A DNA stretch of 64,000 nt from Oscillospiraceae bacterium (GTDB taxonomy: Bacteria; Bacillota; Clostridia; Oscillospirales; Oscillospiraceae). Below the pieces are notes generated by a model. It did not search any database, had not been told where the DNA came from, and saw only the letters and a program-made list of their open reading frames with translations. Position numbers and translations under genes: made by a program. Shown here in pieces: positions 4,782 through 14,979 of this stretch; within the stretch, counting starts at the first letter, position 1; every line of letters starts with the position of its first letter. The stretch covers positions 21,856 through 85,855 of the forward strand of contig JAZUIU010000028.1 in the NCBI GenBank assembly GCA_045642405.1. Direction: 5' to 3'.

Positions 4782-5699
4782 ATGCCGATTAAAATTCCCA
4801 ACGAGCTGCCTGCTTTCAAGGTTTTGACAGACGAAAACATCTTCCTGATGAGCGAGACACGCGCCATCACGCAGGATATCCGTCCTTTGCAGATCGCCGT
4901 TTTGAATTTGATGCCCAACAAGATTGAAACCGAAACCCAGCTTTTGCGTCTGCTCGGCAACACACCTTTGCAGGTGGAAGTGGAACTGCTTCACACGAAA
5001 ACGCACCGCTCTAAAAATGTATCGGAAGAGCATCTTCTCTCTTTTTACAAGACTTTCGACGATGTGAAAGACCGCTTTTTTGACGGCATGGTCATCACCG
5101 GCGCTCCCGTGGAAAAACTGCCCTTTGAAGAGGTGGAGTATTGGGATGAACTGTGCGAGATCATGGAGTGGAGCAAAACGCATGTTCACAGCACCGTCCA
5201 TATCTGTTGGGGAGCGCAAGCCGGTCTTTATTATCACCACGGCATCCAAAAGCACGCTCTTGCAGAGAAACTATTCGGCGTTTTTGCCCACACGGTCGAT
5301 CATCGCTCCTCGATCCTCTTTCGCGGATTTGATGATGTTTTTATGGTGCCGCATTCGCGTTACACAAGCGTGGATATCGAGGATATCAAAAAGTGCAAAG
5401 AACTGAAAATCCTTTCCACATCGAAAGAGACCGGCGTTTATGCCGTTTCCACCGATGAGGGCAAGCAGATCTATCTGATGGGGCATGTGGAATACGATGC
5501 CGCTTCTTTGGGAAAGGAATACCGCCGCGACAAGGAAGCAGGGCTTCCCATCGCCGTGCCGAAAAACTATTTTCTCGATGACGATCCGAGCAAAGAGCCC
5601 ATGGTCACCTGGCGCTCCTGCGCACACATGGTGTTTGCGAATTGGCTCAACTATTTCGTCTATCAGACCACGCCCTACGATATTACCGACATCCGTTAG
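4782..5699 (+). CDS. metA: Homoserine O-acetyl/succinyltransferase (MetA family)
   Basis: [47 protein letters not shown]. Confidence 0.95.
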
Positions 5700-5710
5700 G
5701 AGATTGCGTT

Positions 5711-6592
5711 ATGAAGATCATCGAGCAATTAAACGAGAAAAAATTCACCGTTTCCTTCGAAGTATTTCCGCCCAAAACCGACGCAAATTTCGACTCGGTC
5801 AAATCCGCCACCGAGCAGATTGCCGCACTCAAACCCGGTTTTGTCAGCGTAACTTACGGTGCCGGCGGCGGCACGAGTCAATATACGCTCGCCATCGCCG
5901 AAAACATCAATGCGCACTACGGTGTGCCGTCTTTGGCACACCTCACCTGCGTTTCCTCCTCCAAAAAGACGGTCAAGGAGCGCATCCGGGCTTTGAAAGC
6001 CTCGGGCATTGAAAATGTCATGGCACTGCGCGGCGATATTCCCGAGGAAATGCAGGGACAGGATCGCAGTACATGGGACTATCAATACGCCTGTCAACTC
6101 GTGGAGGAACTGAAACAAGCCGGCGGTTTTTGCATCGGCGGTGCGTGCTATCCCGAGATCCACCCCGAAAGTGCCGATCAGCGCGAAGATATCCGCCATC
6201 TCAAAGAAAAAGTCGAAGCCGGCTGTGATTTTCTGACCACGCAAATGTTTTTCGACAACAATCTTTTTTATAATTTCCTTTTCAAAATCCGCGAAGCCGG
6301 CATCACCGTACCCGTTTTGCCCGGCATTATGCCCATCACCAATGCAAAGCAGGTGGCGCGTGCTGTCAGTCTCTCCGGCTCTTTTGTTCCGCAGCGTTTC
6401 AAAAGTCTGGTCGACCGTTTCGGCTCCGATCCCGAGGCAATGAAGCAAGCCGGCATCGCCTATGCGACCGATCAGATCATCGACCTTTTCGCAAACGGCA
6501 TCTACCATGTGCATATCTACACGATGAACAAGCCCGATGTCGCCGAAAATATCCTCAAAAATCTTTCGTCCATTCTCGGTAAATCGCTATGA
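5711..6592 (+). CDS. metF: 5,10-methylenetetrahydrofolate reductase
   Basis: SFEVFPPK, SVTYGAGGGT, AHLTCV, ALRGD, YPEIHPE, TQMFFDN, HIYTMNK. Confidence 0.95.
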   Translation: MKIIEQLNEKKFTVSFEVFPPKTDANFDSVKSATEQIAALKPGFVSVTYGAGGGTSQYTLAIAENINAHYGVPSLAHLTCVSSSKKTVKERIRALKASGIENVMALRGDIPEEMQGQDRSTWDYQYACQLVEELKQAGGFCIGGACYPEIHPESADQREDIRHLKEKVEAGCDFLTTQMFFDNNLFYNFLFKIREAGITVPVLPGIMPITNAKQVARAVSLSGSFVPQRFKSLVDRFGSDPEAMKQAGIAYATDQIIDLFANGIYHVHIYTMNKPDVAENILKNLSSILGKSL

Positions 6593-7179
6593 TCTCGCCG
6601 CAATACCGAACGGTCTCTTTGCCCGATTTTGACACAGCCGAGATCCTGCGTTATGCCAAAACCAAAACGGCAGAAGGTCTCCCCCTCGCCGAGTGTCTTG
6701 ACGATCTGCGCAGTTTGGAGGGAAAAGCGGCATTTGCCGAGTTTCCGATCGAACATACTGCCGAAGGACTTGATCTCGGATTTGCCAAAACGGCATCGAA
6801 GGATCTGCAAAAGGCTTTGGGCGAGTCGGAAAAAATTCTGCTTTTTGCCGCAACGGTCGGCATTCTGCCCGATCGTCTGACGGCGAAATACTCGCGTCTA
6901 TCCCCCACACGCGCCGTTTTGATCCAGGCGATCGCAACCGAGCGGATCGAAACCCTTTGCGATGCCTTTTGCCGCGAGCGCAAAGCGTACTATGACGCGC
7001 AGGGGTTTGTCTTAAAACCCCGATTCAGTCCCGGATACGGTGATCTGCCGCTTGCGATGCAAAGCGATATCCTCTCCGCCTTGGATTGTCATCGTCTTTT
7101 GGGCATTTCCCTCACAAAAAGCCTTTTGATGATGCCCTCCAAATCGGTCACTGCCATTGCGGGAATTTGCCGCAAATAA
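6589..7179 (+). CDS. Stand-alone cobalamin-dependent methionine synthase reactivation (SAM-binding) domain
   Basis: RFSPGYGDLPL and MPSKSVTAIAG motifs; overlaps the metF stop and lies directly before metH. Confidence 0.85.
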   Translation: MISPQYRTVSLPDFDTAEILRYAKTKTAEGLPLAECLDDLRSLEGKAAFAEFPIEHTAEGLDLGFAKTASKDLQKALGESEKILLFAATVGILPDRLTAKYSRLSPTRAVLIQAIATERIETLCDAFCRERKAYYDAQGFVLKPRFSPGYGDLPLAMQSDILSALDCHRLLGISLTKSLLMMPSKSVTAIAGICRK

Positions 7180-7191
7180 AGGAGAAGTCCC

Positions 7192-9561
7192 ATGACACTC
7201 AAAGAATTCATCCAAAACCGCATTTTGGTGCTTGACGGCGGTACCGGCACGCTCTTGCAAGCCGCCGGTCTTCCGGCAGGGATGCCGCCCGAAAAATGGA
7301 ATACGGAAAATCCCGATGCCGTCATTGCTTTGCATCAAGCCTATTTTGATGCCGGTAGCAATGCCGTCGTCACCAATACTTTTGGTGTAAATGCACTCAA
7401 ATACAGCGTGAAAGAAATCGAAAAGACGGTTTCCGCGGCAGTTTCTCATGCGAAAAAAGCCGCCGCGCTTTCTTGCGGCGAGCAGGAAAAATTCGTCCTT
7501 TTGGATTTAGGCCCGACCGGAAGACTGCTTGCGCCGTTGGGTGATCTGGATTTTGAAGATGCCGTTGCGGCGTATGTCCCTGTCATTTCCGCCGGTGTCA
7601 AAGCAGGTGCGAACGGCATTTTCATCGAAACGATGAACGATTGCTACGAGACCAAAGCCGCGCTTTTGGCGGCAAAAGAACACTCCGATCTCCCCGTTAT
7701 CGTCTCCAATGCCTATTCTCAGGACGGCCGCTTACTCAGCGGCTCGTCGCCTGCGGTGATGGTGGCGATGCTTGAAGGAATGGGAGCCGATGTGATCGGC
7801 GTAAACTGTTCTTTCGGTCCCGACGGTCTGATGCCCGTCGTCAAAGAATATCTGTCGCTTGCTTCCGTCCCTGTTTTGATGAAGCCCAATGCCGGCATTC
7901 CGAAAGTTACGGACGGCAAAACTGTTTTTGACATCACGCCCGATCAATTTGCCGATGAAATGCGCACGGCGGTGAAAATGGGTGTGCGCTGCGTCGGCGG
8001 CTGCTGCGGTACGACACCCGAACATATTGAAAAAACCGTCTCGGCGATCCGCGACCTCTCCCCCGTCGCCGTGACAAACAAGCAAAAAACCGTGGTCTGT
8101 TCTTCCACGAAAGCAGTCGATTTTGACCGTTATCCCGTCCTCATCGGTGAGCGGATCAATCCTACGGGCAAAAAGCGGCTCAAACTCGCGCTTGCCGAGC
8201 GTGATCTCACTTACATTTTGAATGAAGGCATCACCCAGCAGGAAAAGGGCGCGCACATTTTGGATGTGAATGTCGGCATCCCGGACATCAGCGAAGCGGA
8301 GTTACTGCCGGACATCATCGGCGAATTGCAAAGCGTCTGCGATGTTCCGCTGCAAATCGACACTTCCGACTATACGGCGATGGAAAAAGCCATGCGCCGC
8401 TACATCGGAAAGCCTTTGGTCAACTCGGTCAACGGCAAAAAAGAGAGTATGAACGCCGTCTTTCCTCTGATCAAGAAGTACGGCGGCACCGTTATCGCGC
8501 TCACGCTCGATGAAAACGGCATCCCCGACACAGCGCAGGGGCGTTTGGAGATCGCAAAGCGCATTTTAGCGCGTGCCGAACAGTTCGGCATTGCAAAAAA
8601 CGACATCGTTTTCGACCCTCTTGCACTCACCGTGAGCGCCGACAAAAATGCCGCAATTGTGACCTTGCAAGCCATTTCCCTCATCACCCAAACGCTGGGA
8701 TGCCGCACCTCTTTGGGCGTTTCCAATGTATCGTTCGGTCTTCCCAACCGCGGTGAGATCAATGCCGCATTCTTTACCGCCGCTCTTTATGCCGGTCTCA
8801 CCGCCGCCATAATCAATCCCAACTCCGGTGAAATGATGTTGGCTTATCATACATTCCGCGTTCTCAACGCGCTGGATGAAAACTGTCTTGACTTCATCGC
8901 CTATGCCGAAGGCACCGAAAAAAAAGCGGAAGCGCCGGTTGAAAATACCGCTATGACGCTTGCGCAGGCAATCGTAAAAGGGCTCAAAACAAAAGCCGGT
9001 GAACTCGCCAAATCCATGCTGCAAACGCTCGATGCCATGGAGATCATCAACGCGCATATCATTCCCGCGCTTGATCAGGTCGGCATCGGTTTTGAGCATA
9101 AAACCGTCTTTCTCCCCCAACTGCTGATGAGTGCGGAAGCCGCTTCCTGCGCCTTTGAGCAGATCAAAGCATCCAACACCATTAAACGCGAAAAAAACGG
9201 TATAAAGATCGTGCTTGCGACCGTGCAGGGCGACATTCACGATATCGGGAAAAATATTGTGCGAATGCTTCTTGCCAACTACGGCTTTGAGGTCATTGAT
9301 CTCGGCAAGGATATCAAGCCGGAAATGATCGTCTCTGCCGCCATAGAACAACACGCCGCCATCGTCGGTCTCTCGGCTTTGATGACCACGACTGTTCCTT
9401 ATATGGAAAAGACCATCCGTCTTTTGCGTGCAAAAGCACCCGATGTCAAAATCGTGGTCGGCGGTGCGGTTTTGACGAAGGAATACGCCGAAAAGATCGG
9501 TGCAGACCATTACGCCGTGGATGCAATGGAAACCGTGCGCTATGCCGAGCAATTTCAATAA
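7192..9561 (+). CDS. metH: B12-dependent methionine synthase (Hcy-binding, pterin-binding and cobalamin-binding domains; no C-terminal activation domain)
   Basis: LDGGTGT, GVNCS, GGCCGTTPEHI, IGERINPTGKK, VQGDIHDIGKNIV (B12 DxHxxG motif). Confidence 0.95.
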   Translation: MTLKEFIQNRILVLDGGTGTLLQAAGLPAGMPPEKWNTENPDAVIALHQAYFDAGSNAVVTNTFGVNALKYSVKEIEKTVSAAVSHAKKAAALSCGEQEKFVLLDLGPTGRLLAPLGDLDFEDAVAAYVPVISAGVKAGANGIFIETMNDCYETKAALLAAKEHSDLPVIVSNAYSQDGRLLSGSSPAVMVAMLEGMGADVIGVNCSFGPDGLMPVVKEYLSLASVPVLMKPNAGIPKVTDGKTVFDITPDQFADEMRTAVKMGVRCVGGCCGTTPEHIEKTVSAIRDLSPVAVTNKQKTVVCSSTKAVDFDRYPVLIGERINPTGKKRLKLALAERDLTYILNEGITQQEKGAHILDVNVGIPDISEAELLPDIIGELQSVCDVPLQIDTSDYTAMEKAMRRYIGKPLVNSVNGKKESMNAVFPLIKKYGGTVIALTLDENGIPDTAQGRLEIAKRILARAEQFGIAKNDIVFDPLALTVSADKNAAIVTLQAISLITQTLGCRTSLGVSNVSFGLPNRGEINAAFFTAALYAGLTAAIINPNSGEMMLAYHTFRVLNALDENCLDFIAYAEGTEKKAEAPVENTAMTLAQAIVKGLKTKAGELAKSMLQTLDAMEIINAHIIPALDQVGIGFEHKTVFLPQLLMSAEAASCAFEQIKASNTIKREKNGIKIVLATVQGDIHDIGKNIVRMLLANYGFEVIDLGKDIKPEMIVSAAIEQHAAIVGLSALMTTTVPYMEKTIRLLRAKAPDVKIVVGGAVLTKEYAEKIGADHYAVDAMETVRYAEQFQ

Positions 9562-9580
9562 GTGATTAGAGAAACAAAAA

Positions 9581-9630
9581 GAGCCTTCAATCGCCGAGTG
9601 TTCGTAAAGACACTCGGCGATTGAAGGCTC
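9581..9630. terminator. Perfect 21-bp stem-loop between convergent metH and the XRE gene
   Basis: GAGCCTTCAATCGCCGAGTGT, 8-nt loop, ACACTCGGCGATTGAAGGCTC; the preceding A-tract gives a U-tract on the minus strand. Confidence 0.8.
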
Positions 9631-9631
9631 G

Positions 9632-9874
9632 TTATTCCATTTCCAAAAGCCAGTTGACGGTTACTTTCAGAATTTTTGCCAAAGCGCGCAACTCATAATC
9701 CGCGACAAATCTTGTGCCGATTTCAATGCGTGATACGCTGTCGCGCTCCATCGTGATGCCCATCACTTGCAGTTGTGCCGCGACATCACTCTGCGTCAGC
9801 CGGTGCTTGCATCGCGCCTCATGGATACGATCACCGCAGACATTTTTTCTCCCCTCAAAATCGTATATTTTCAC
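9632..9874 (-). CDS. XRE-family HTH transcriptional regulator
   Basis: RIHEARCKHRLTQSDVAAQL...VSRIEIGTR...LAKILKVTVNWLL; probable GTG start at 9874 with a GGAGG RBS. Confidence 0.85.
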   Translation of the reverse strand: MKIYDFEGRKNVCGDRIHEARCKHRLTQSDVAAQLQVMGITMERDSVSRIEIGTRFVADYELRALAKILKVTVNWLLEME

Positions 9875-9889
9875 AATCTTCGCCTCCGT

Positions 9890-9964
9890 TTGTGTTAATA
9901 ACAAGAATTTATCTTGACATTAGCACACTATTAGGATAGGATTGTGTTAAAGATCAGAATTTAT
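9890..9964. promoter_or_regulatory. Divergent control region: sigma-A promoter (TTGACA 9914-9919, TAGGAT 9937-9942) flanked by two 23-bp direct repeats (candidate operators)
   Basis: TTGTGTTAA-N5-AGAATTTAT at 9890-9912 and 9942-9964. Confidence 0.55.
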
Positions 9965-9981
9965 ACAGAGAGGGGAACACT

Positions 9982-11118
9982 ATGTCTATTGCCGAAATCA
10001 TCAAATACGAAGGGGATAATTCCACCTTCATCTGGAAGCATCCGTGCGAAGATTTCAACTCGCTGACGCAACTCATTGTCCACGAAAGTCAGGAAGCGAT
10101 TTTCTTTATGAACGGGCAGGCACTTGATCTGTTCGGGGCGGGACGCTACACGCTGGAAACGCAGAATATTCCTAAGATCGGAAAACTGCTCAACCGCACG
10201 ACCGACGGAGAAACGCCGTTTCATTGCGAGGTTTATTTCATCAACAAGACCGAGCAGATGTCTCTTAAATGGGGCACGGACAGCAAAGTGCAGTATGTTG
10301 ATCCCACTTACGGCTTTCCGATCTCCATCGGCGCAAGCGGTGAAATGTCACTTCGCGCGGCAGACAGCCGCAAACTGCTTTTGAAATTGGTAGGAACGGA
10401 AAACTATTTGGGGCAGGAAAAACTGATGTCGTTTTTCCGCGCCTTTTTGATGACAAAGGTCAAAACTTACATTGCGCAGGTGATGAAAGCCAATGCCATC
10501 AATATTTTTGAGATCGACGAAAATTTGACCAATTTCAGTGAAAACATACACAAATTGCTCATTCCCGATTTTGCGGATTACGGCGTTTCATTAGAGCGTT
10601 TCTTTGTCACCTCCGTTGTCAAGCCCGACGGCGAGCGTCAGTACGAAAAATTCAAAGAATTGCACTTCCGTCAGTACGCCGACATTGCCGAGGCAAAACT
10701 CCGCCAGCAGACCGATATCATCTATGCGCAGACCGAAGCGCAAAAAGTCGTCATTGATTCGCAGGCACAGGCGACCAAGCGTGCGCAGGAAGGCTACACA
10801 TACGCTCAGGAGCGTGGCTTTGATGTTGCCGAAAAAGTGGCGCAAAACGAGGCAGTCGGGCAATTTACCAATATGGGTGTCGGACTCGGCACGATGGCAG
10901 GTGTCGGCGGTGCGGTCGGCGGTGTGGTCGGTAATGCCGTAAACGGTGCAATGAACGCGGCGGCAGAAACTCCTGCTCCTGCTTCCGCCGCTCCGACAGA
11001 TGATATGGCGGCTTTCAAAGCAAAAATCGAAAAACTGACCGTGATGAAAGATGCCGGACTTATCACCGAAGAAGAGTTTGCAAATATGAAGGCAGAACTT
11101 CTGAAAAGTATTCTTTAA
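9982..11118 (+). CDS. SPFH/Band-7 domain protein (YdjI / 'virion core protein'-like) with a short SHOCT-like C-terminus
   Basis: IWKHPCEDFNSLTQLIVHESQEAIFF.NGQALD.FG.GRYTLET, EVYFINKT, KWGT; coiled-coil; Gly-rich GMGVGLGTMAG; C-terminal LTVMKDAGLITEEEFANMKAELL. Confidence 0.85.
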   Translation: MSIAEIIKYEGDNSTFIWKHPCEDFNSLTQLIVHESQEAIFFMNGQALDLFGAGRYTLETQNIPKIGKLLNRTTDGETPFHCEVYFINKTEQMSLKWGTDSKVQYVDPTYGFPISIGASGEMSLRAADSRKLLLKLVGTENYLGQEKLMSFFRAFLMTKVKTYIAQVMKANAINIFEIDENLTNFSENIHKLLIPDFADYGVSLERFFVTSVVKPDGERQYEKFKELHFRQYADIAEAKLRQQTDIIYAQTEAQKVVIDSQAQATKRAQEGYTYAQERGFDVAEKVAQNEAVGQFTNMGVGLGTMAGVGGAVGGVVGNAVNGAMNAAAETPAPASAAPTDDMAAFKAKIEKLTVMKDAGLITEEEFANMKAELLKSIL

Positions 11119-11133
11119 TGTGAGGGGAAAACT

Positions 11134-11835
11134 ATGAAAAAAGGTTTCAGATCATACACGATCGTTTGGGCGATCCTGCTTGCACTTTTTAATGCCGTTG
11201 TCTTTTTGGTGCGTCCGATCATTCCGGGCTTCACCGTTGTTTACGATGCCCGCTTTTGGGTAGTCTGGGCATTTGTGATTGCTGCGTTTATCGGCAATCT
11301 CATCTGCGCCGATGCCGCGTTCAAAGCGGAAAACGCGGAAAAACTCTTTTACAATGTTCCGCTGATTTCGATCAGTTATACTGCCGTCATTTTGATGCTT
11401 GTTTTCGGCGCGGTGCTTCTGCTGATCCCGAACTGCCCCGGTTGGATCGCCGCCATCGCCTGCCTTGCGATCCTCGCCTTTAACGCCATCGCCGTGGTCA
11501 AGGCATCCGCCGCCGCGGAGGTGGTCAGCAAAACGGGGGAAACAGTCAAAGCACAGACCTTTTTCATCAAATCGCTGACGGTCGATGCCGAAACACTTCT
11601 TGCCAAGGCAAAGAGCGAAGAAGCAAAAGCCGCGTGCGAAAAAGTCTTTGAGGCGATCCGCTATTCCGACCCGATGAGCAATGATGCCCTCGCCGATGTT
11701 GAAAGTCAGATCACGCTGAAATTCAGTGCGTTTTCCGATGCCGTGACCGGCGGTGCGGACAGTATCGGTAATCTCGCGGATGAGGTTGTTGTGCTGATTG
11801 AGGATAGAAATAAGAAATGTAAGTTCTTAAAGTGA
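11134..11835 (+). CDS. Hypothetical membrane protein (about 4 N-terminal TM helices plus a soluble helical C-domain with RYSDP motif)
   Basis: Four hydrophobic segments in aa ~8-125; GAGGGG RBS; co-oriented, with 15-nt and 21-nt gaps to its neighbours. Confidence 0.8.
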   Translation: MKKGFRSYTIVWAILLALFNAVVFLVRPIIPGFTVVYDARFWVVWAFVIAAFIGNLICADAAFKAENAEKLFYNVPLISISYTAVILMLVFGAVLLLIPNCPGWIAAIACLAILAFNAIAVVKASAAAEVVSKTGETVKAQTFFIKSLTVDAETLLAKAKSEEAKAACEKVFEAIRYSDPMSNDALADVESQITLKFSAFSDAVTGGADSIGNLADEVVVLIEDRNKKCKFLK

Positions 11836-11856
11836 TATAAGGAGAGAAAATTACAA

Positions 11857-14526
11857 ATGTCAATCTTCAAGTGTAAAATGTGCGGCGGCACGATAGAATT
11901 TGAGCAGGGAGCGACCGTCGGTGTCTGCGATTCGTGCGGAACGAAGCAAACGCTTCCCCGTCTTGATGACGACAAGAAAGCAAATCTTTACGACAGAGCC
12001 AACCATTTCCGCCGAAGCAATGATTTCGACAAGGCAATGTCGATCTATGAGCAAATCTTAAACGAGGACAACACCGACGCCGAGGCGTATTGGTCGCTCG
12101 TTCTCTGCCGTTACGGTATCGAATATGTGGAGGATCCCTCCTCGCACAAGCGTATTCCCACCGTCAACCGTGCGCAATTTACCTCGATCTTCGCCGATGA
12201 GGACTACAAGTCCGCCCTGCAATACGCGGACGGTTATCAGAAAACCATCTATGAGGACGAAGCGAAAGCGATCGACGAAATACAAAAAGGCATTTTAGAA
12301 ATTTCCTCCAAGGAAGAGCCGTTTGATGTTTTCATTTGCTACAAGGAAACGGATGCCAACGGTCGCCGCACGCAGGACAGCGTTCTTGCCAATGATCTGT
12401 ATCATCAACTCACACAAGAGGGCTTCAAGGTCTTCTTCTCCCGTATCACACTTGAAGACAAACTCGGTACGGCTTATGAACCGTATATCTTCGCCGCGCT
12501 GAACTCCTCCAAAGTTATGGTCGTACTCGGCACAAAGCCCGAATATTTCAACGCCGTATGGGTAAAGAATGAATGGAGCCGTTATCTCGCACTTATCAAA
12601 AACGGCGCAAAGAAAATGCTCATTCCCGCATACCGTGATATGGACCCCTATGATCTGCCGGAAGAATTTTCACATTTGCAGGCACAGGATATGGGAAAAC
12701 TCGGCTTTATGCAGGATTTGATCCGAGGTATCAGGAAAATCATTGAATCAGACGCACCGAAAACGACCGTAAAGGAAACGGTCATTGTCGGTGCCAATAG
12801 TGCCGAAACTGCTCCGCTCCTTGAAAGAGTCTTCCTCTTCCTTGAAGACGGCAAGTGGCAGGATGCCAATATCTACTGCGAAAAGGTTTTGGATATCGAC
12901 CCGAAGAATGCAAATGCCTATCTCGGCAAACTGATGGCGGAATTGCAGGTAACGAACCGCAAAAAATTAGCCGACTGTGCCAAACTGTTTGATGATAGGG
13001 ATAATTTCGCAAAGGTCATCCGCTTCGGCGACGAGGCACTTGAAAAAGAAATGCGCGGGTATATCGCGCAGATCAACGAGCGCAACGAGACGGCGCGCAA
13101 GAATGAAATCTATAACGAAGCCGTCAGCGAAATGACGGCTCGCTCGGAAGAATCTTTCCGTGATGCCGCAAAGGCTTTTGCAAGCATCCCCGGCTTCAAA
13201 GACGCAGACACTCTTGCCGAACAATGCCTTGAAAAGGCGGAGGTTTGCCGCAAGGATGCCGTATATTCTTCTGCCAAGTTAAAGATGAGAGGCGAAAAGG
13301 TCGTTTATTATGAAGAAGCGATCAAAGTATTCCAAATGATTTCCGGTTGGAAGGATGCAGACAAGCAGATCTACGCTTGCCAAAAGAAAATCGAAGAAAT
13401 CAAAGCAAAGGAAGAAGCCGACCGACTGGAAGCCGCGCGCAGAGCCGAAAAAGCGCGGATTGCCGCCGAAGCGGCAAAGAAAAAAGCGATCAAGATCGCC
13501 AAGATTGTGACTCCGATCGTTGCAGCGTGTATCGCGTTTATCATCGTGCTCAATACGGTAATCATACCGACTGCTAAGTACAATGCCGCCATCGCGCTGA
13601 TGAATGAAGAAAAATATGATGAAGCAATTTCTGCATTTGCGGCAATGGAAGGATATAAGGATAGTGTTGAAAAGATTGATTCCTGTAAGTTTGAAAAAGC
13701 AATGAAACTCATTGATTCCGAAAACTATGATTCTGCCTATGCGTTGCTTGAAGAAATCGGCAACAGCGAAGTCATCGCATCAAGTAAATATGACAGAGCA
13801 ATAAAACTCGTTGATTCCGGCGATTATGAGCCTGCTTATATGCTTTTGACCGGGCTGGAATATAAGGATAGCGCCGAAAGACTAAAAAGCATAACGCAGA
13901 TCCTTTTATCAAAAGCAAATGTTGGCGATAAAGTGTTTTTCGGGACTTACGAGCAGGACAACGATGCTTCAAACGGGAAAGAAGAAATTGAATGGATCGT
14001 GCTTGACAAACAGGAAGGCAAAGCGCTGCTTATCAGCAACAAAGCACTCGAAGCGCGCGAGTACCATACGGAATGGGATGATATTACTTGGGAGACCTGT
14101 ACGCTTCGCAAGTGGCTGAATGAAGACTTTTTTTATACCGCCTTTCACGATGCGGAAAGGGCAATGATTGCCGACACATGGGTATCCGCAGATGCGAATC
14201 CAAAATATGCTACCGATCCGGGCAACGCAACGACGGATAAAGTGTTCCTGCTGAGTATCAATGAAGTTGAGAAATATTTCAATAGTGACGAAGCAAGAAT
14301 GTGTGCTCCGACTGCCTACGCAGAAGAACAGGGTGCATATACAAACGATGATTATAGAACAGCAAGTGGCGAAGCCGCGTGCTTGTGGTGGCTCCGGTCG
14401 CCCGGCGGTGCTCAGGATATTGCCGCCTATGTCTTCTATGGCGGCTCGGTCTATTGCTATGGTTACACCGTCAGCCATGGTAATGACTGTGTTCGTCCCG
14501 CTTTGTGGATCAATCTGGACTCTTAA
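11857..14526 (+). CDS. Membrane-anchored TIR-domain protein: Zn-ribbon, TPR, TIR, TPR/helical repeats, TM, repeats, DUF6273-like C-domain
   Basis: CKMC...CDSC; TIR DVFICYK...GFKVFF...IFAALNSSKVMVVL...WVKNEW (E239); TM aa ~550-571 after KKKAIKIAK; GYKDS/GFKDA repeats; C-terminal GDKVFFGTYEQD, IEWIVLD, TLRKWLN, DKVFLLS, WWLRSPG, VRPALWI. Confidence 0.88.
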   Translation: MSIFKCKMCGGTIEFEQGATVGVCDSCGTKQTLPRLDDDKKANLYDRANHFRRSNDFDKAMSIYEQILNEDNTDAEAYWSLVLCRYGIEYVEDPSSHKRIPTVNRAQFTSIFADEDYKSALQYADGYQKTIYEDEAKAIDEIQKGILEISSKEEPFDVFICYKETDANGRRTQDSVLANDLYHQLTQEGFKVFFSRITLEDKLGTAYEPYIFAALNSSKVMVVLGTKPEYFNAVWVKNEWSRYLALIKNGAKKMLIPAYRDMDPYDLPEEFSHLQAQDMGKLGFMQDLIRGIRKIIESDAPKTTVKETVIVGANSAETAPLLERVFLFLEDGKWQDANIYCEKVLDIDPKNANAYLGKLMAELQVTNRKKLADCAKLFDDRDNFAKVIRFGDEALEKEMRGYIAQINERNETARKNEIYNEAVSEMTARSEESFRDAAKAFASIPGFKDADTLAEQCLEKAEVCRKDAVYSSAKLKMRGEKVVYYEEAIKVFQMISGWKDADKQIYACQKKIEEIKAKEEADRLEAARRAEKARIAAEAAKKKAIKIAKIVTPIVAACIAFIIVLNTVIIPTAKYNAAIALMNEEKYDEAISAFAAMEGYKDSVEKIDSCKFEKAMKLIDSENYDSAYALLEEIGNSEVIASSKYDRAIKLVDSGDYEPAYMLLTGLEYKDSAERLKSITQILLSKANVGDKVFFGTYEQDNDASNGKEEIEWIVLDKQEGKALLISNKALEAREYHTEWDDITWETCTLRKWLNEDFFYTAFHDAERAMIADTWVSADANPKYATDPGNATTDKVFLLSINEVEKYFNSDEARMCAPTAYAEEQGAYTNDDYRTASGEAACLWWLRSPGGAQDIAAYVFYGGSVYCYGYTVSHGNDCVRPALWINLDS

Positions 14527-14544
14527 CTCTTCGCACTCGCGCTG

Positions 14545-14890
14545 CCTTCCCCTAAGGGGAAGGCTAAGAGGTAGGAAATTTTTCGGATTACCACATGGGA
14601 GGAGCAAGCCCCTCCCCTACGAATGTTCTATCTGAAATTCCCTCGTTCAAAGAATGGATTCCCACGGCGGCGAAGCCGCCTCGGAATGACGAAGAGTTTT
14701 ACACATCCGAATATTTCGTCATTGCGAGGTGCGCAGCACCGTAGCAATCCGCGTCCCCCTTCCCCTTATGGGAAGGCTAAGAGGTAGGAAATTTTACGGA
14801 TTACCACATGGGAGGAGCAAGCCCCTCCCCTACGAATGTTCTATCTGAAATTTGCCTTTTTCCGCCAATCCCTCCGGTTTTCGCCCCTAC
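14545..14890. repeat. Composite palindromic repeat cluster (REP/BIME-like): two 95-bp direct repeats around an inverted-repeat core
   Basis: Copies at 14545-14639 and 14758-14852 (92/95 identical). Each has CCTTCCCC-N4-GGGAAGG and, on the minus strand, GTAG-GGGAGGGGC-TT-GCTCCTCCC hairpins. The core has GGAATGACGAA/TTCGTCATTGC inverted repeats. A third GTAGGGG end sits at 14884-14890. Confidence 0.8.
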
Positions 14891-14940: not shown

Positions 14941-14979
14941 AAAAATACGCCTTATGTGAGATCACATAAGGCGTTTTTT
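14941..14979. terminator. Bidirectional intrinsic terminator
   Basis: AAAAAT-ACGCCTTATGTG-AGAT-CACATAAGGCGT-TTTTT. Confidence 0.85.

Follow-up and report, generated by a model that had tools for sequence, protein, structure and literature searches.

The locus described here raises the question of what a bacterial protein with a TIR domain on one side of a single membrane-spanning helix and a lectin-like domain on the other is doing behind the gene for an SPFH-type scaffold protein. It lies in a 64,000-nt stretch of contig JAZUIU010000028.1 (positions 21,856 to 85,855, forward strand) of the Oscillospiraceae bacterium assembly GCA_045642405.1, and this whole stretch is called the window below. 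The window carries an intact copy of a mobile three-gene cassette, composed of genes for an SPFH protein, a protein with four transmembrane (TM) helices (the 4TM protein) and a TIR receptor, which has been orphaned from its diversity-generating retroelement (DGR) and has a local XRE-family regulator gene beside it (Table 1). The coupling of a DGR-diversifiable sensor to TIR is already known; here it takes the form of a receptor that crosses the membrane once and sits on an SPFH platform. The anatomy of this receptor and its history as a DGR target are near-certain, and what it does is a matter of more graded judgement.

The receptor was annotated by Pfam as containing TIR_2 (4.3e-12, aa 158–280), TPRs and DUF6273 (1.2e-31, aa 720–886), and an AlphaFold2 model built from 45 homologues (mean predicted local distance difference test score, pLDDT, of 85) placed a helical stalk between the membrane and the DUF6273 domain. 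The order of Zn-ribbon, TPR, TIR, TM, repeats and DUF6273 put forward in an earlier annotation made from the DNA alone, here termed the sequence-only reading, is supported. Residues C6, C9, C24 and C27 of the Zn-ribbon and W235, N238, E239 and W240 of the TIR domain are invariant in family alignments of 20, 37 and 45 members. Among structures in the PDB, the best sequence match of the TIR domain is TLR15/TLR2 (7ylf, 1.4e-5), and the domain also aligns to an AbTir-type TIR (7uxr) and the flax L7 TIR (7vu8). E239, in the motif WVKNE, lines up with the Glu of WTEYE in 7uxr and of CLMEL in 7vu8, which we take to be the catalytic residue of those two TIRs; the suggestion of the sequence-only reading that a Glu is retained at the catalytic position holds, and the TIR domain looks enzymatically competent from its sequence. 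By Foldseek, a core-only model of the receptor TIR resembles the TIR domains of L6, L7, RUN1, Roq1, MAL, TLRs and AbTir, matches that we treat as supportive only because the pLDDT of this model falls to 43–60 in part of the TIR. Nine Lys or Arg residues are found in the 27 positions before the TM helix and two in the 28 after it, and this excess on the N-terminal side supports, as a prediction, the N-in/C-out topology proposed earlier. The Zn-ribbon, TPR and TIR domains are therefore predicted to be cytoplasmic, and the stalk and lectin-like DUF6273 domain to lie outside.

The ectodomain (aa 690–889) is modelled at a pLDDT of 95–98 and resembles DUF6273 proteins of phages by Foldseek, with a TM-score of 0.77 normalised to the target. 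The PDB match of the model is the IgA peptidase structure of T. ramosa (9qa6), whose N-terminal domain is DUF6273; a full-length Foldseek search against the PDB was swamped by TPR proteins. Researchers have described DUF6273 as a C-type-lectin-like fold and as a DGR target in phage receptor-binding proteins, 'tentaclin' (PMC10743442). The sequence-only reading was right that a DUF6273-like outer domain is present, but it overlooked that this domain ends in a DGR variable region (VR). Alignment of the last 126 nt of the domain with the template repeat (TR) of the DGR-linked relative L013 is gapless and contains 27 mismatches: 21 fall on the 35 adenines of the template and 6 on its 91 remaining bases (odds ratio 21, p = 7e-10). 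Identity at the non-adenine positions is 93%, as against 72% between the neighbouring 441 nt of ectodomain sequence and the relative (p = 2e-6). These features of the sequence mark the C-terminal 42 residues of the DUF6273 domain as a DGR variable region.

The VR appears to have outlived the machinery that would have rewritten it. Homology to the DGR-bearing relative stops at position 14533, 7 nt after the stop codon, and copies of a dispersed repeat resembling repetitive extragenic palindromes (REP-like) occupy the position at which the relatives carry a hairpin, bAvd, TR and reverse transcriptase (RT) gene. No RVT_1, Avd, RT or TR was found in the genome by profile search, tblastn and blastn of the 69-contig assembly. 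Because homology ends just beyond the stop codon and the genome shows no RT, the VR appears frozen and the tip fixed as one variant, and the simplest history is that the receptor was a DGR target until recently and that the DGR core was then lost. In a tree of cytoplasmic halves, the window gene falls in a seven-member group with five DGR-linked genes, and the tree shows DGR-linked genes at three or more separate points. Orphan VRs recur elsewhere in the family, e.g. in L111.

In the closest relatives, the retroelement is still in place. Two long contigs, one of them from a pig-gut metagenome, code for receptors of 829–832 aa whose cytoplasmic half is 90% identical to that of the window, and the gene order there is integrase, SPFH, 4TM, SduA_C, a TM-less TIR paralogue, the TIR-DUF6273 receptor, bAvd, reverse transcriptase and FRG, with bAvd, TR and RT directly 3' of the receptor gene. 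A 126-nt repeat joins the 3' end of the receptor gene to the Avd-RT spacer, and adenines of the template account for 12 of its 14 mismatches; the template, whose translation is CWWWLRSPGNNQNNAANVNNDGSVNYNGNNVNNDNNAVRPA, is AAY-rich, as is typical of template repeats. Such repeats were located in eight loci, and some of them serve two or three receptor genes. L067 carries one TR with two cognate VRs (8376 and 12160) in tandem TIR-DUF6273 receptor genes, and L068 has three VRs (2398, 7783 and 10880), each in a DUF6273-coding stretch, together with an RT, with no template repeat of its own located. The 829-aa protein was compared in 119 natural variants, in which the entropy per site is ~0.01 bit outside 17 variable positions, all within aa 791–817, of which 14 carry 11–16 residue types each at ~3 bits. 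Hypermutation is thus ongoing in nature, since entropy in these variants is confined to 17 codons.

These findings align the receptor with the C-type-lectin proteins already known as DGR targets, Mtd of the Bordetella phage, TvpA of Treponema and 'tentaclin' (PMC10743442), with which it shares a C-terminal VR in a lectin-like domain, adenine-specific mismatches, an AAY-rich template, a 3' end resembling the initiation of mutagenic homing (IMH) site and, in the relatives, a downstream bAvd-TR-RT block. It differs from them in being a bacterial single-pass protein that bears a cytoplasmic TIR domain at its other end and whose gene shares an operon with those for SPFH and 4TM, and the window copy differs further in lacking a cognate TR or RT.

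The association of the receptor with its two upstream genes is conserved far beyond this genome. The sequence-only reading had staked its case beforehand on the conservation of SPFH and 4TM genes next to TIR homologues, and the order SPFH, 4TM, receptor is indeed kept in 14 of 20 neighbourhoods from different genera. A scan of genome collections then gave at least 587 loci, of which 79 were kept, and in ~57 of these independent loci the gene order is the same. SPFH is present in 59 of the 79, 4TM in 57 and DUF6273 in 56, and when all open reading frames (ORFs) of 22 loci were clustered, only the SPFH, 4TM and receptor families proved common. None of 24 genomes from the same genus has a homologue of the TIR half; across the order, the TIR core was found in 39 of 401 genomes (32 of 178 genera). 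The TIR core and the 4TM gene, each present in 39 genomes, occur together in 30 of the 401 (odds ratio 131, p = 2e-29), an association that exceeds chance, and the 4TM gene is never found without SPFH (39 of 39 genomes). The 300-aa core defines 4,093 clusters at 50% identity (E ≤ 1e-30), and the family's diversity resides in its tails, since total lengths range from 467 to 3,073 aa around this one core. SPFH, 4TM and TIR receptor thus make up a mobile cassette that is conserved among Clostridia of the gut and rumen. The XRE regulator, which the sequence-only reading had counted as part of the system, is not one of its members: a homologue was found in 1 of the 79 loci, others use a gene for a small ribbon-helix-helix protein, and XRE is local to the window island and outside the conserved cassette.

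Mobility of this kind might mean that the cassette is cargo that serves a mobile element through superinfection exclusion, addiction or inter-element competition. A tyrosine recombinase of ~280 aa lies directly upstream of SPFH at a fixed distance in 13 of the 79 loci (e.g. L067 3707–4564), the small ribbon-helix-helix gene takes the upstream position in 11, serine recombinases are nearby in 4, and genes for TnpV, DUF6076 and FRG are further present in L013 and L014. The core is moreover 80–97% identical across Bacillota of more than one order, among them Lachnospiraceae, Oscillospiraceae, Acutalibacteraceae, Anaerovoracaceae and Christensenellaceae in the set of 79. The window island, however, sits amid housekeeping genes with no recombinase inside it, and a cargo role would overlap with a defence role and not exclude it; as an explanation in its own right we consider it decidedly improbable. 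As a separate observation, L070, L075, L116 and L135 have cores 80–88% identical in bins labelled Sphaerochaetaceae, Bacteroidaceae and Planctomycetota, which could be cross-phylum transfer or a mis-binned mobile element.

What the cassette holds constant was revealed by loci that lack the TIR domain. Nine genomes carry SPFH and 4TM genes with no TIR-core match, and in all eight of the loci fetched from this group the gene after 4TM opens with the same Zn-ribbon (...KCKNCGG...CDSCG...). Six of these genes code for proteins of 308–336 aa, in which the Zn-ribbon is followed by a helical region, a stretch rich in Lys and Arg, a single TM helix and a beta-rich ectodomain of ~125 aa. A seventh (L170 2705–4687) joins the Zn-ribbon to TPRs, two TM helices and a tail resembling the C-terminal domain of ribosomal protein L7/L12, and the eighth locus (L171 1850–7747) carries tandem Zn-ribbon/TPR/2TM proteins that adjoin a HerA-like ATPase and a further Zn-ribbon protein. 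On this sequence evidence, the invariant triad is SPFH, 4TM and a Zn-ribbon membrane protein, to which TIR and a variable ectodomain are add-ons, and because the Zn-ribbon is the one feature that the third genes of all examined SPFH+4TM cassettes have in common, it is the probable docking element.

A precedent for such docking exists in B. subtilis, where researchers established that the membrane partners YdjG and YdjH recruit the soluble SPFH protein YdjI (PMC11237479, PMC13713150). The SPFH protein of the window (Band_7_1 at 2e-37, SHOCT at 2.6e-7) has no TM segment, is hence soluble and belongs to the YdjI/SamI-like type of scaffold. The 4TM protein, which matches no Pfam family and in particular has no TPM domain, is predicted to be N-in with a cytoplasmic helical C-terminal domain of ~110 aa. 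Like the PspA-YdjG-YdjH-YdjI (SamGHI) module (PMC8581546, PMC11237479, PMC13713150), the cassette combines a Band_7_1 SPFH protein with a multi-pass protein and a Zn-ribbon membrane protein, a parallel with YdjG and YdjH that is drawn from the layout of the parts. The analogy with YdjGHI drawn in the sequence-only reading is strengthened, as the third genes of TIR-less cassettes keep both the Zn-ribbon and a TM helix. The same evidence could suit a module for envelope stress or membrane maintenance of the YdjG/H/I (SamG/H/I) kind, in which SPFH, 4TM and the Zn-ribbon-TM protein are the working unit that would monitor or repair the membrane, and the TIR domain and ectodomain are lineage-specific decorations that tune it; the parts correspond to YdjI, YdjH and YdjG (PMC11237479, PMC13713150), and 4TM always accompanies SPFH. 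Unlike SamGHI, however, the system stands in a genome with no PspA (PF04012) match and its 4TM protein lacks TPM, its Zn-ribbon protein has gained TPR, TIR and a variable ectodomain, and the cassette is accessory, patchy and horizontally mobile and not a housekeeping set. Hypermutation of an outward binding tip by a DGR is also hard to explain by stress alone, and a purely envelope-stress role seems rather improbable.

The condition of the window copy bears on a further possibility, namely that it is a decaying remnant no longer under selection after loss of the DGR. Avd, TR, RT and the hairpin that follows the VR are gone and REP-like repeats stand in their place, the Shedu and second TIR genes of L013 are absent, and the exact 889-aa form of the receptor occurs nowhere else among 5.8 billion database proteins. 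Against decay, the three ORFs are all of full length, every residue invariant in the family is kept, the Zn-ribbon cysteines and E239 included, the gaps between the genes are short (15 and 21 nt), and the promoter-like site and the terminators are preserved. We regard a remnant as highly improbable.

The favoured reading, a DGR-orphaned cassette with a ligand-clustered TIR receptor on an SPFH/4TM platform, has in our estimate about an even chance of being right as a whole. The Zn-ribbon would dock the receptor onto a sub-membrane platform of SPFH and 4TM proteins, much as YdjG and YdjH recruit YdjI, and a ligand bound to the variable lectin tip would cluster receptors. The TIR domains would then self-associate, and an active site at Glu239 would cleave NAD+, with its depletion or a signal nucleotide as the product and growth arrest or another conflict/defence response as the outcome. 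Whether the TIR output is triggered by ligand in this way seems to us evenly poised. The triggers named in the sequence-only reading, namely adsorption or injection by phage or damage to the envelope, are putative, as is an NADase output. The arrangement resembles animal Toll-like receptors in its outer binding domain, one TM helix and inner TIR domain; however, the polarity is reversed, with the TIR domain N-terminal (type II), the ectodomain is lectin-like and does not consist of leucine-rich repeats, and the retained Glu suggests an enzymatic and not an adaptor-scaffolding TIR. On comparison of these layouts, the resemblance is best taken as analogy and not orthology.

An association with defence is suggested by several features in combination. 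Points in favour of a conflict or defence role are that the TIR domain looks competent, that a DGR diversifies the outer tip, that the spread is patchy and horizontal, and that defence-type genes occur inside the relatives' cassettes. A full-length Shedu SduA gene (1.6e-99) lies between the 4TM and TIR genes of L013 (5708–6511), and an FRG gene that matches PDC-S15 (9e-69) follows its RT (12418–13470). L067 carries a PDC-S31 protein inside the cassette (9269–9988), and L121 a stand-alone TIR protein of 150 aa (9515–9967) that is ThsB-like or PDC-S66. As the sequence-only reading had anticipated, no named defence system was recognised: PADLOC returned no system-level match at the locus and no matches for SPFH and 4TM, the receptor has weak matches only, to the ThsB (0.0034) and ThcB4 profiles, its neighbours have none, and NCBIfam recognised no system among the four proteins. 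In a comparison at a cut-off of 1e-10, 120 flanking ORFs matched 22 PADLOC families and 120 control ORFs, drawn at random positions of those genomes, matched 57, mostly generic helicase/ATPase models, so that raw family counts show no surplus in the flanks; AbiL, PDC-S32 and PDC-S34 were found in the flanks only and not in the controls.

This lack of a flank surplus is one of several points that weigh against the favoured reading. The existence of TIR-less cassettes means that the TIR domain cannot be the cassette's core function. A DGR-type RT is present in only ~10% of loci and in 1 of 32 cassette-bearing species genomes, and its absence from the organism of the window is not proven, because the assembly is in 69 contigs. 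The TIR core is also unusually invariant for a defence protein, the window holds no separate effector gene, and DUF6273 and similar tails are adhesin-type domains as well. With these points counted, an immune-sensor function is plausible, and a specifically anti-phage or immune role is held tentatively, on the doubtful side.

Published systems share some traits with this cassette and differ from it in others. In Thiohalocapsa and cyanobacteria, DGR targets carry TIR domains or neighbour TIR effectors, in STAND or MoxR/vWA systems (PMC10907252, PMC7517822). The DGR antigen sensors of these studies (Dore et al. 2024, PMC10907252; Vallota-Eastman 2020, PMC7517822) share with the cassette a hypermutated lectin-like sensor combined with conflict effectors, TIR among them, as well as the idea of an anticipatory sensor repertoire. 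Their frameworks are STAND NTPases or MoxR/vWA ternary systems, most are predicted to lie in the cytoplasm, and they come from Chromatiales and cyanobacteria, whereas the cassette is of gut Clostridia, has no NTPase, places sensor and TIR across the membrane in one polypeptide and has an SPFH/4TM platform. No STAND NTPase, MoxR ATPase or vWA domain was found in the four window proteins or in the families conserved across loci. With Thoeris and other TIR anti-phage systems (ThsB; types I–XI, bioRxiv 10.64898/2025.12.03.692087) the receptor shares the Glu at the catalytic position; unlike them, it has no gene for a ThsA-type signal-binding effector in its island, and its TIR domain is tethered to the membrane and joined to an ectodomain. 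The text of that preprint mentions no SPFH, flotillin or zinc component. In the literature searched, no paper joins 'SPFH', 'TIR domain' and 'anti-phage' and none was found that describes the family, and TIR is mentioned neither in a global survey of DGRs nor in a review of their part in immunity.

By extension of the favoured reading, the receptors might be anticipatory surface receptors that follow the logic of antibodies or variable lymphocyte receptors, with binding of a phage or competitor outside triggering a TIR NADase inside. A near-invariant Zn-ribbon/TIR core on its SPFH/4TM platform would be combined with thousands of 'germline' ectodomains, to which, in some lineages, a DGR would add 'somatic' hypermutation of the lectin tip, and the window would be a fixed clone that keeps one VR variant after loss of its DGR. 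We judge this elaboration unlikely.

The same outer tip could instead serve a variable adhesin or colonisation factor that binds host glycans, mucus, IgA or neighbouring cells and has no immune role, with the TIR/SPFH part organising, anchoring or signalling contact. Most cellular DGR targets are membrane-anchored binding proteins (Roux 2021, PMC8144416), the IgA peptidase that begins with DUF6273 is a secreted gut-bacterial protein, and the lack of a defence-gene surplus in the flanks fits as well. In addition, the same genome codes outside the window for two TIR-less TM-stalk-DUF6273 paralogues, C53:118-2298 (-) and C7:22384-23997 (-), which are 57% and 45% identical, respectively, to the TM, stalk and DUF6273 half of the window receptor. 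Their TM helices are similar to that of the window, nearly identical in C7; their cytoplasmic N-termini differ and have no TIR domain, with a coiled coil in C53 and a CxC...CxxC motif in C7; C7 has a poly-(Tyr/Asp) insert in its DUF6273 domain; and neither has SPFH or 4TM neighbours. Both contain the stalk repeats, ~270 nt of which in the window (13665–13937) have no counterpart in L013. As targets of an L013-type TR the two paralogues were considered and set aside, the adenine bias of C53 being weak (20 of 35 adenines mismatched vs 27 of 91 other positions) and C7 unalignable. For an adhesin, however, a dedicated SPFH/4TM platform and a Zn-ribbon are superfluous, the invariant catalytic-position Glu and near-invariant TIR core imply selection on an enzyme or assembly, and Shedu, PDC and ThsB-like genes are inserted inside the relatives' cassettes. 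We consider an adhesin unlikely, if a serious contender.

Table 1. Features of the island and its receptor gene (window coordinates)
Feature	Position	Strand	Remarks
Bidirectional hairpin terminator, 20-bp stem	9582–9629		Left border of island, after metH
XRE-family HTH regulator	9632–9904	-	Pfam HTH_31/HTH_3 at gathering threshold; divergent from operon
Promoter-like site TTGACA-17-TAGGAT	9914–9942	+	Upstream of SPFH gene; consensus match only
Soluble SPFH protein, Band_7_1, Gly-rich linker, C-terminal SHOCT	9982–11118	+	Pfam; conserved 5' of TIR receptors
4-TM membrane protein	11134–11835	+	No known family; with SPFH gene in 39/39 genomes
889-aa single-pass receptor: Zn-ribbon, TPR, TIR, TPR/coiled coil, TM, helical stalk, DUF6273	11857–14526	+	
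CxxC-N14-CxxC Zn-ribbon, C6/C9/C24/C27	11872–11937	+	Cysteines invariant in family
TIR domain, aa 156–290; Glu239 codon 12571–12573	12322–12726	+	Pfam TIR_2, PDB alignments, Foldseek
TM helix, aa 547–571, after Lys/Arg-rich stretch	13495–13569	+	
Predicted extracytoplasmic helical stalk, Y..A...YKDS repeats, aa 572–686	13570–13914	+	
DUF6273 ectodomain, lectin-like per literature	14014–14514	+	Pfam 1.2e-31; model; Foldseek
Orphan DGR VR, aa 842–883, last 126 nt of DUF6273	14379–14504	+	
IMH-like VR 3' end, stop codon and 7 nt	14505–14533	+	29/29 identical to DGR-linked relative
Two 95-nt copies of REP-like dispersed repeat	14545–14852		Not part of system
Bidirectional hairpin terminator	14947–14974		Right border; common to convergent ligase gene

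The four ORFs of the island are intact, a spacer of 77 nt separates the operon from the divergent XRE gene, and hairpins with stems of 12–20 bp close it on both sides, beyond which lie MetH (S-methyl_trans, Pterin_bind and B12-binding domains) and an AMP-binding ligase. ORFs and Pfam thus confirm the arrangement described from the DNA alone, an XRE gene facing away from SPFH, 4TM and receptor between metH and an acyl-CoA ligase. An empty-site comparison with same-genus genomes was attempted and abandoned: synteny is not conserved, metH and the ligase orthologue being 85 kb apart in the single genome inspected for this, and no insertion borders are definable. The repeats downstream of the receptor gene were considered as a DGR remnant and ruled out, since they belong to a REP-like element of ~95 nt with nested GC-rich hairpins that has 203 full or partial blastn matches across the genome (1.69 Mb, 98.5% complete). 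Some copies lie near contig ends, and the element probably fragments the assembly. On the other side of the island, the block of a methylenetetrahydrofolate reductase gene, a 196-aa ORF and metH (5642–9561) is atypical for the genus: its MetH is ~48% identical to the best same-genus matches and was found in 10 of 25 relatives sampled and absent from 15, and the 196-aa ORF (6589–7179) has no Pfam match at E ≤ 1e-5.

What the window itself adds to the family is an orphan VR whose footprint and break point could be quantified, together with the recognition that the Zn-ribbon is what the cassette keeps constant. As a DGR footprint without a DGR, it is a natural experiment, with a single fixed specificity that could be expressed for ligand screening, and E239, the Zn-ribbon cysteines and the 17 variable codons offer experimental handles. 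If the proposed function is true, the receptor would be a bacterial counterpart of Toll-like receptors whose ligand tip can be rewritten by a retroelement, and two fields, DGR hypermutation and immunity based on TIR domains, would meet in commensals that are abundant in the gut. Should an immune role prove mistaken, the recruitment of Zn-ribbon single-pass proteins by SPFH and 4TM partners would still generalise the YdjGHI/SamGHI paradigm.

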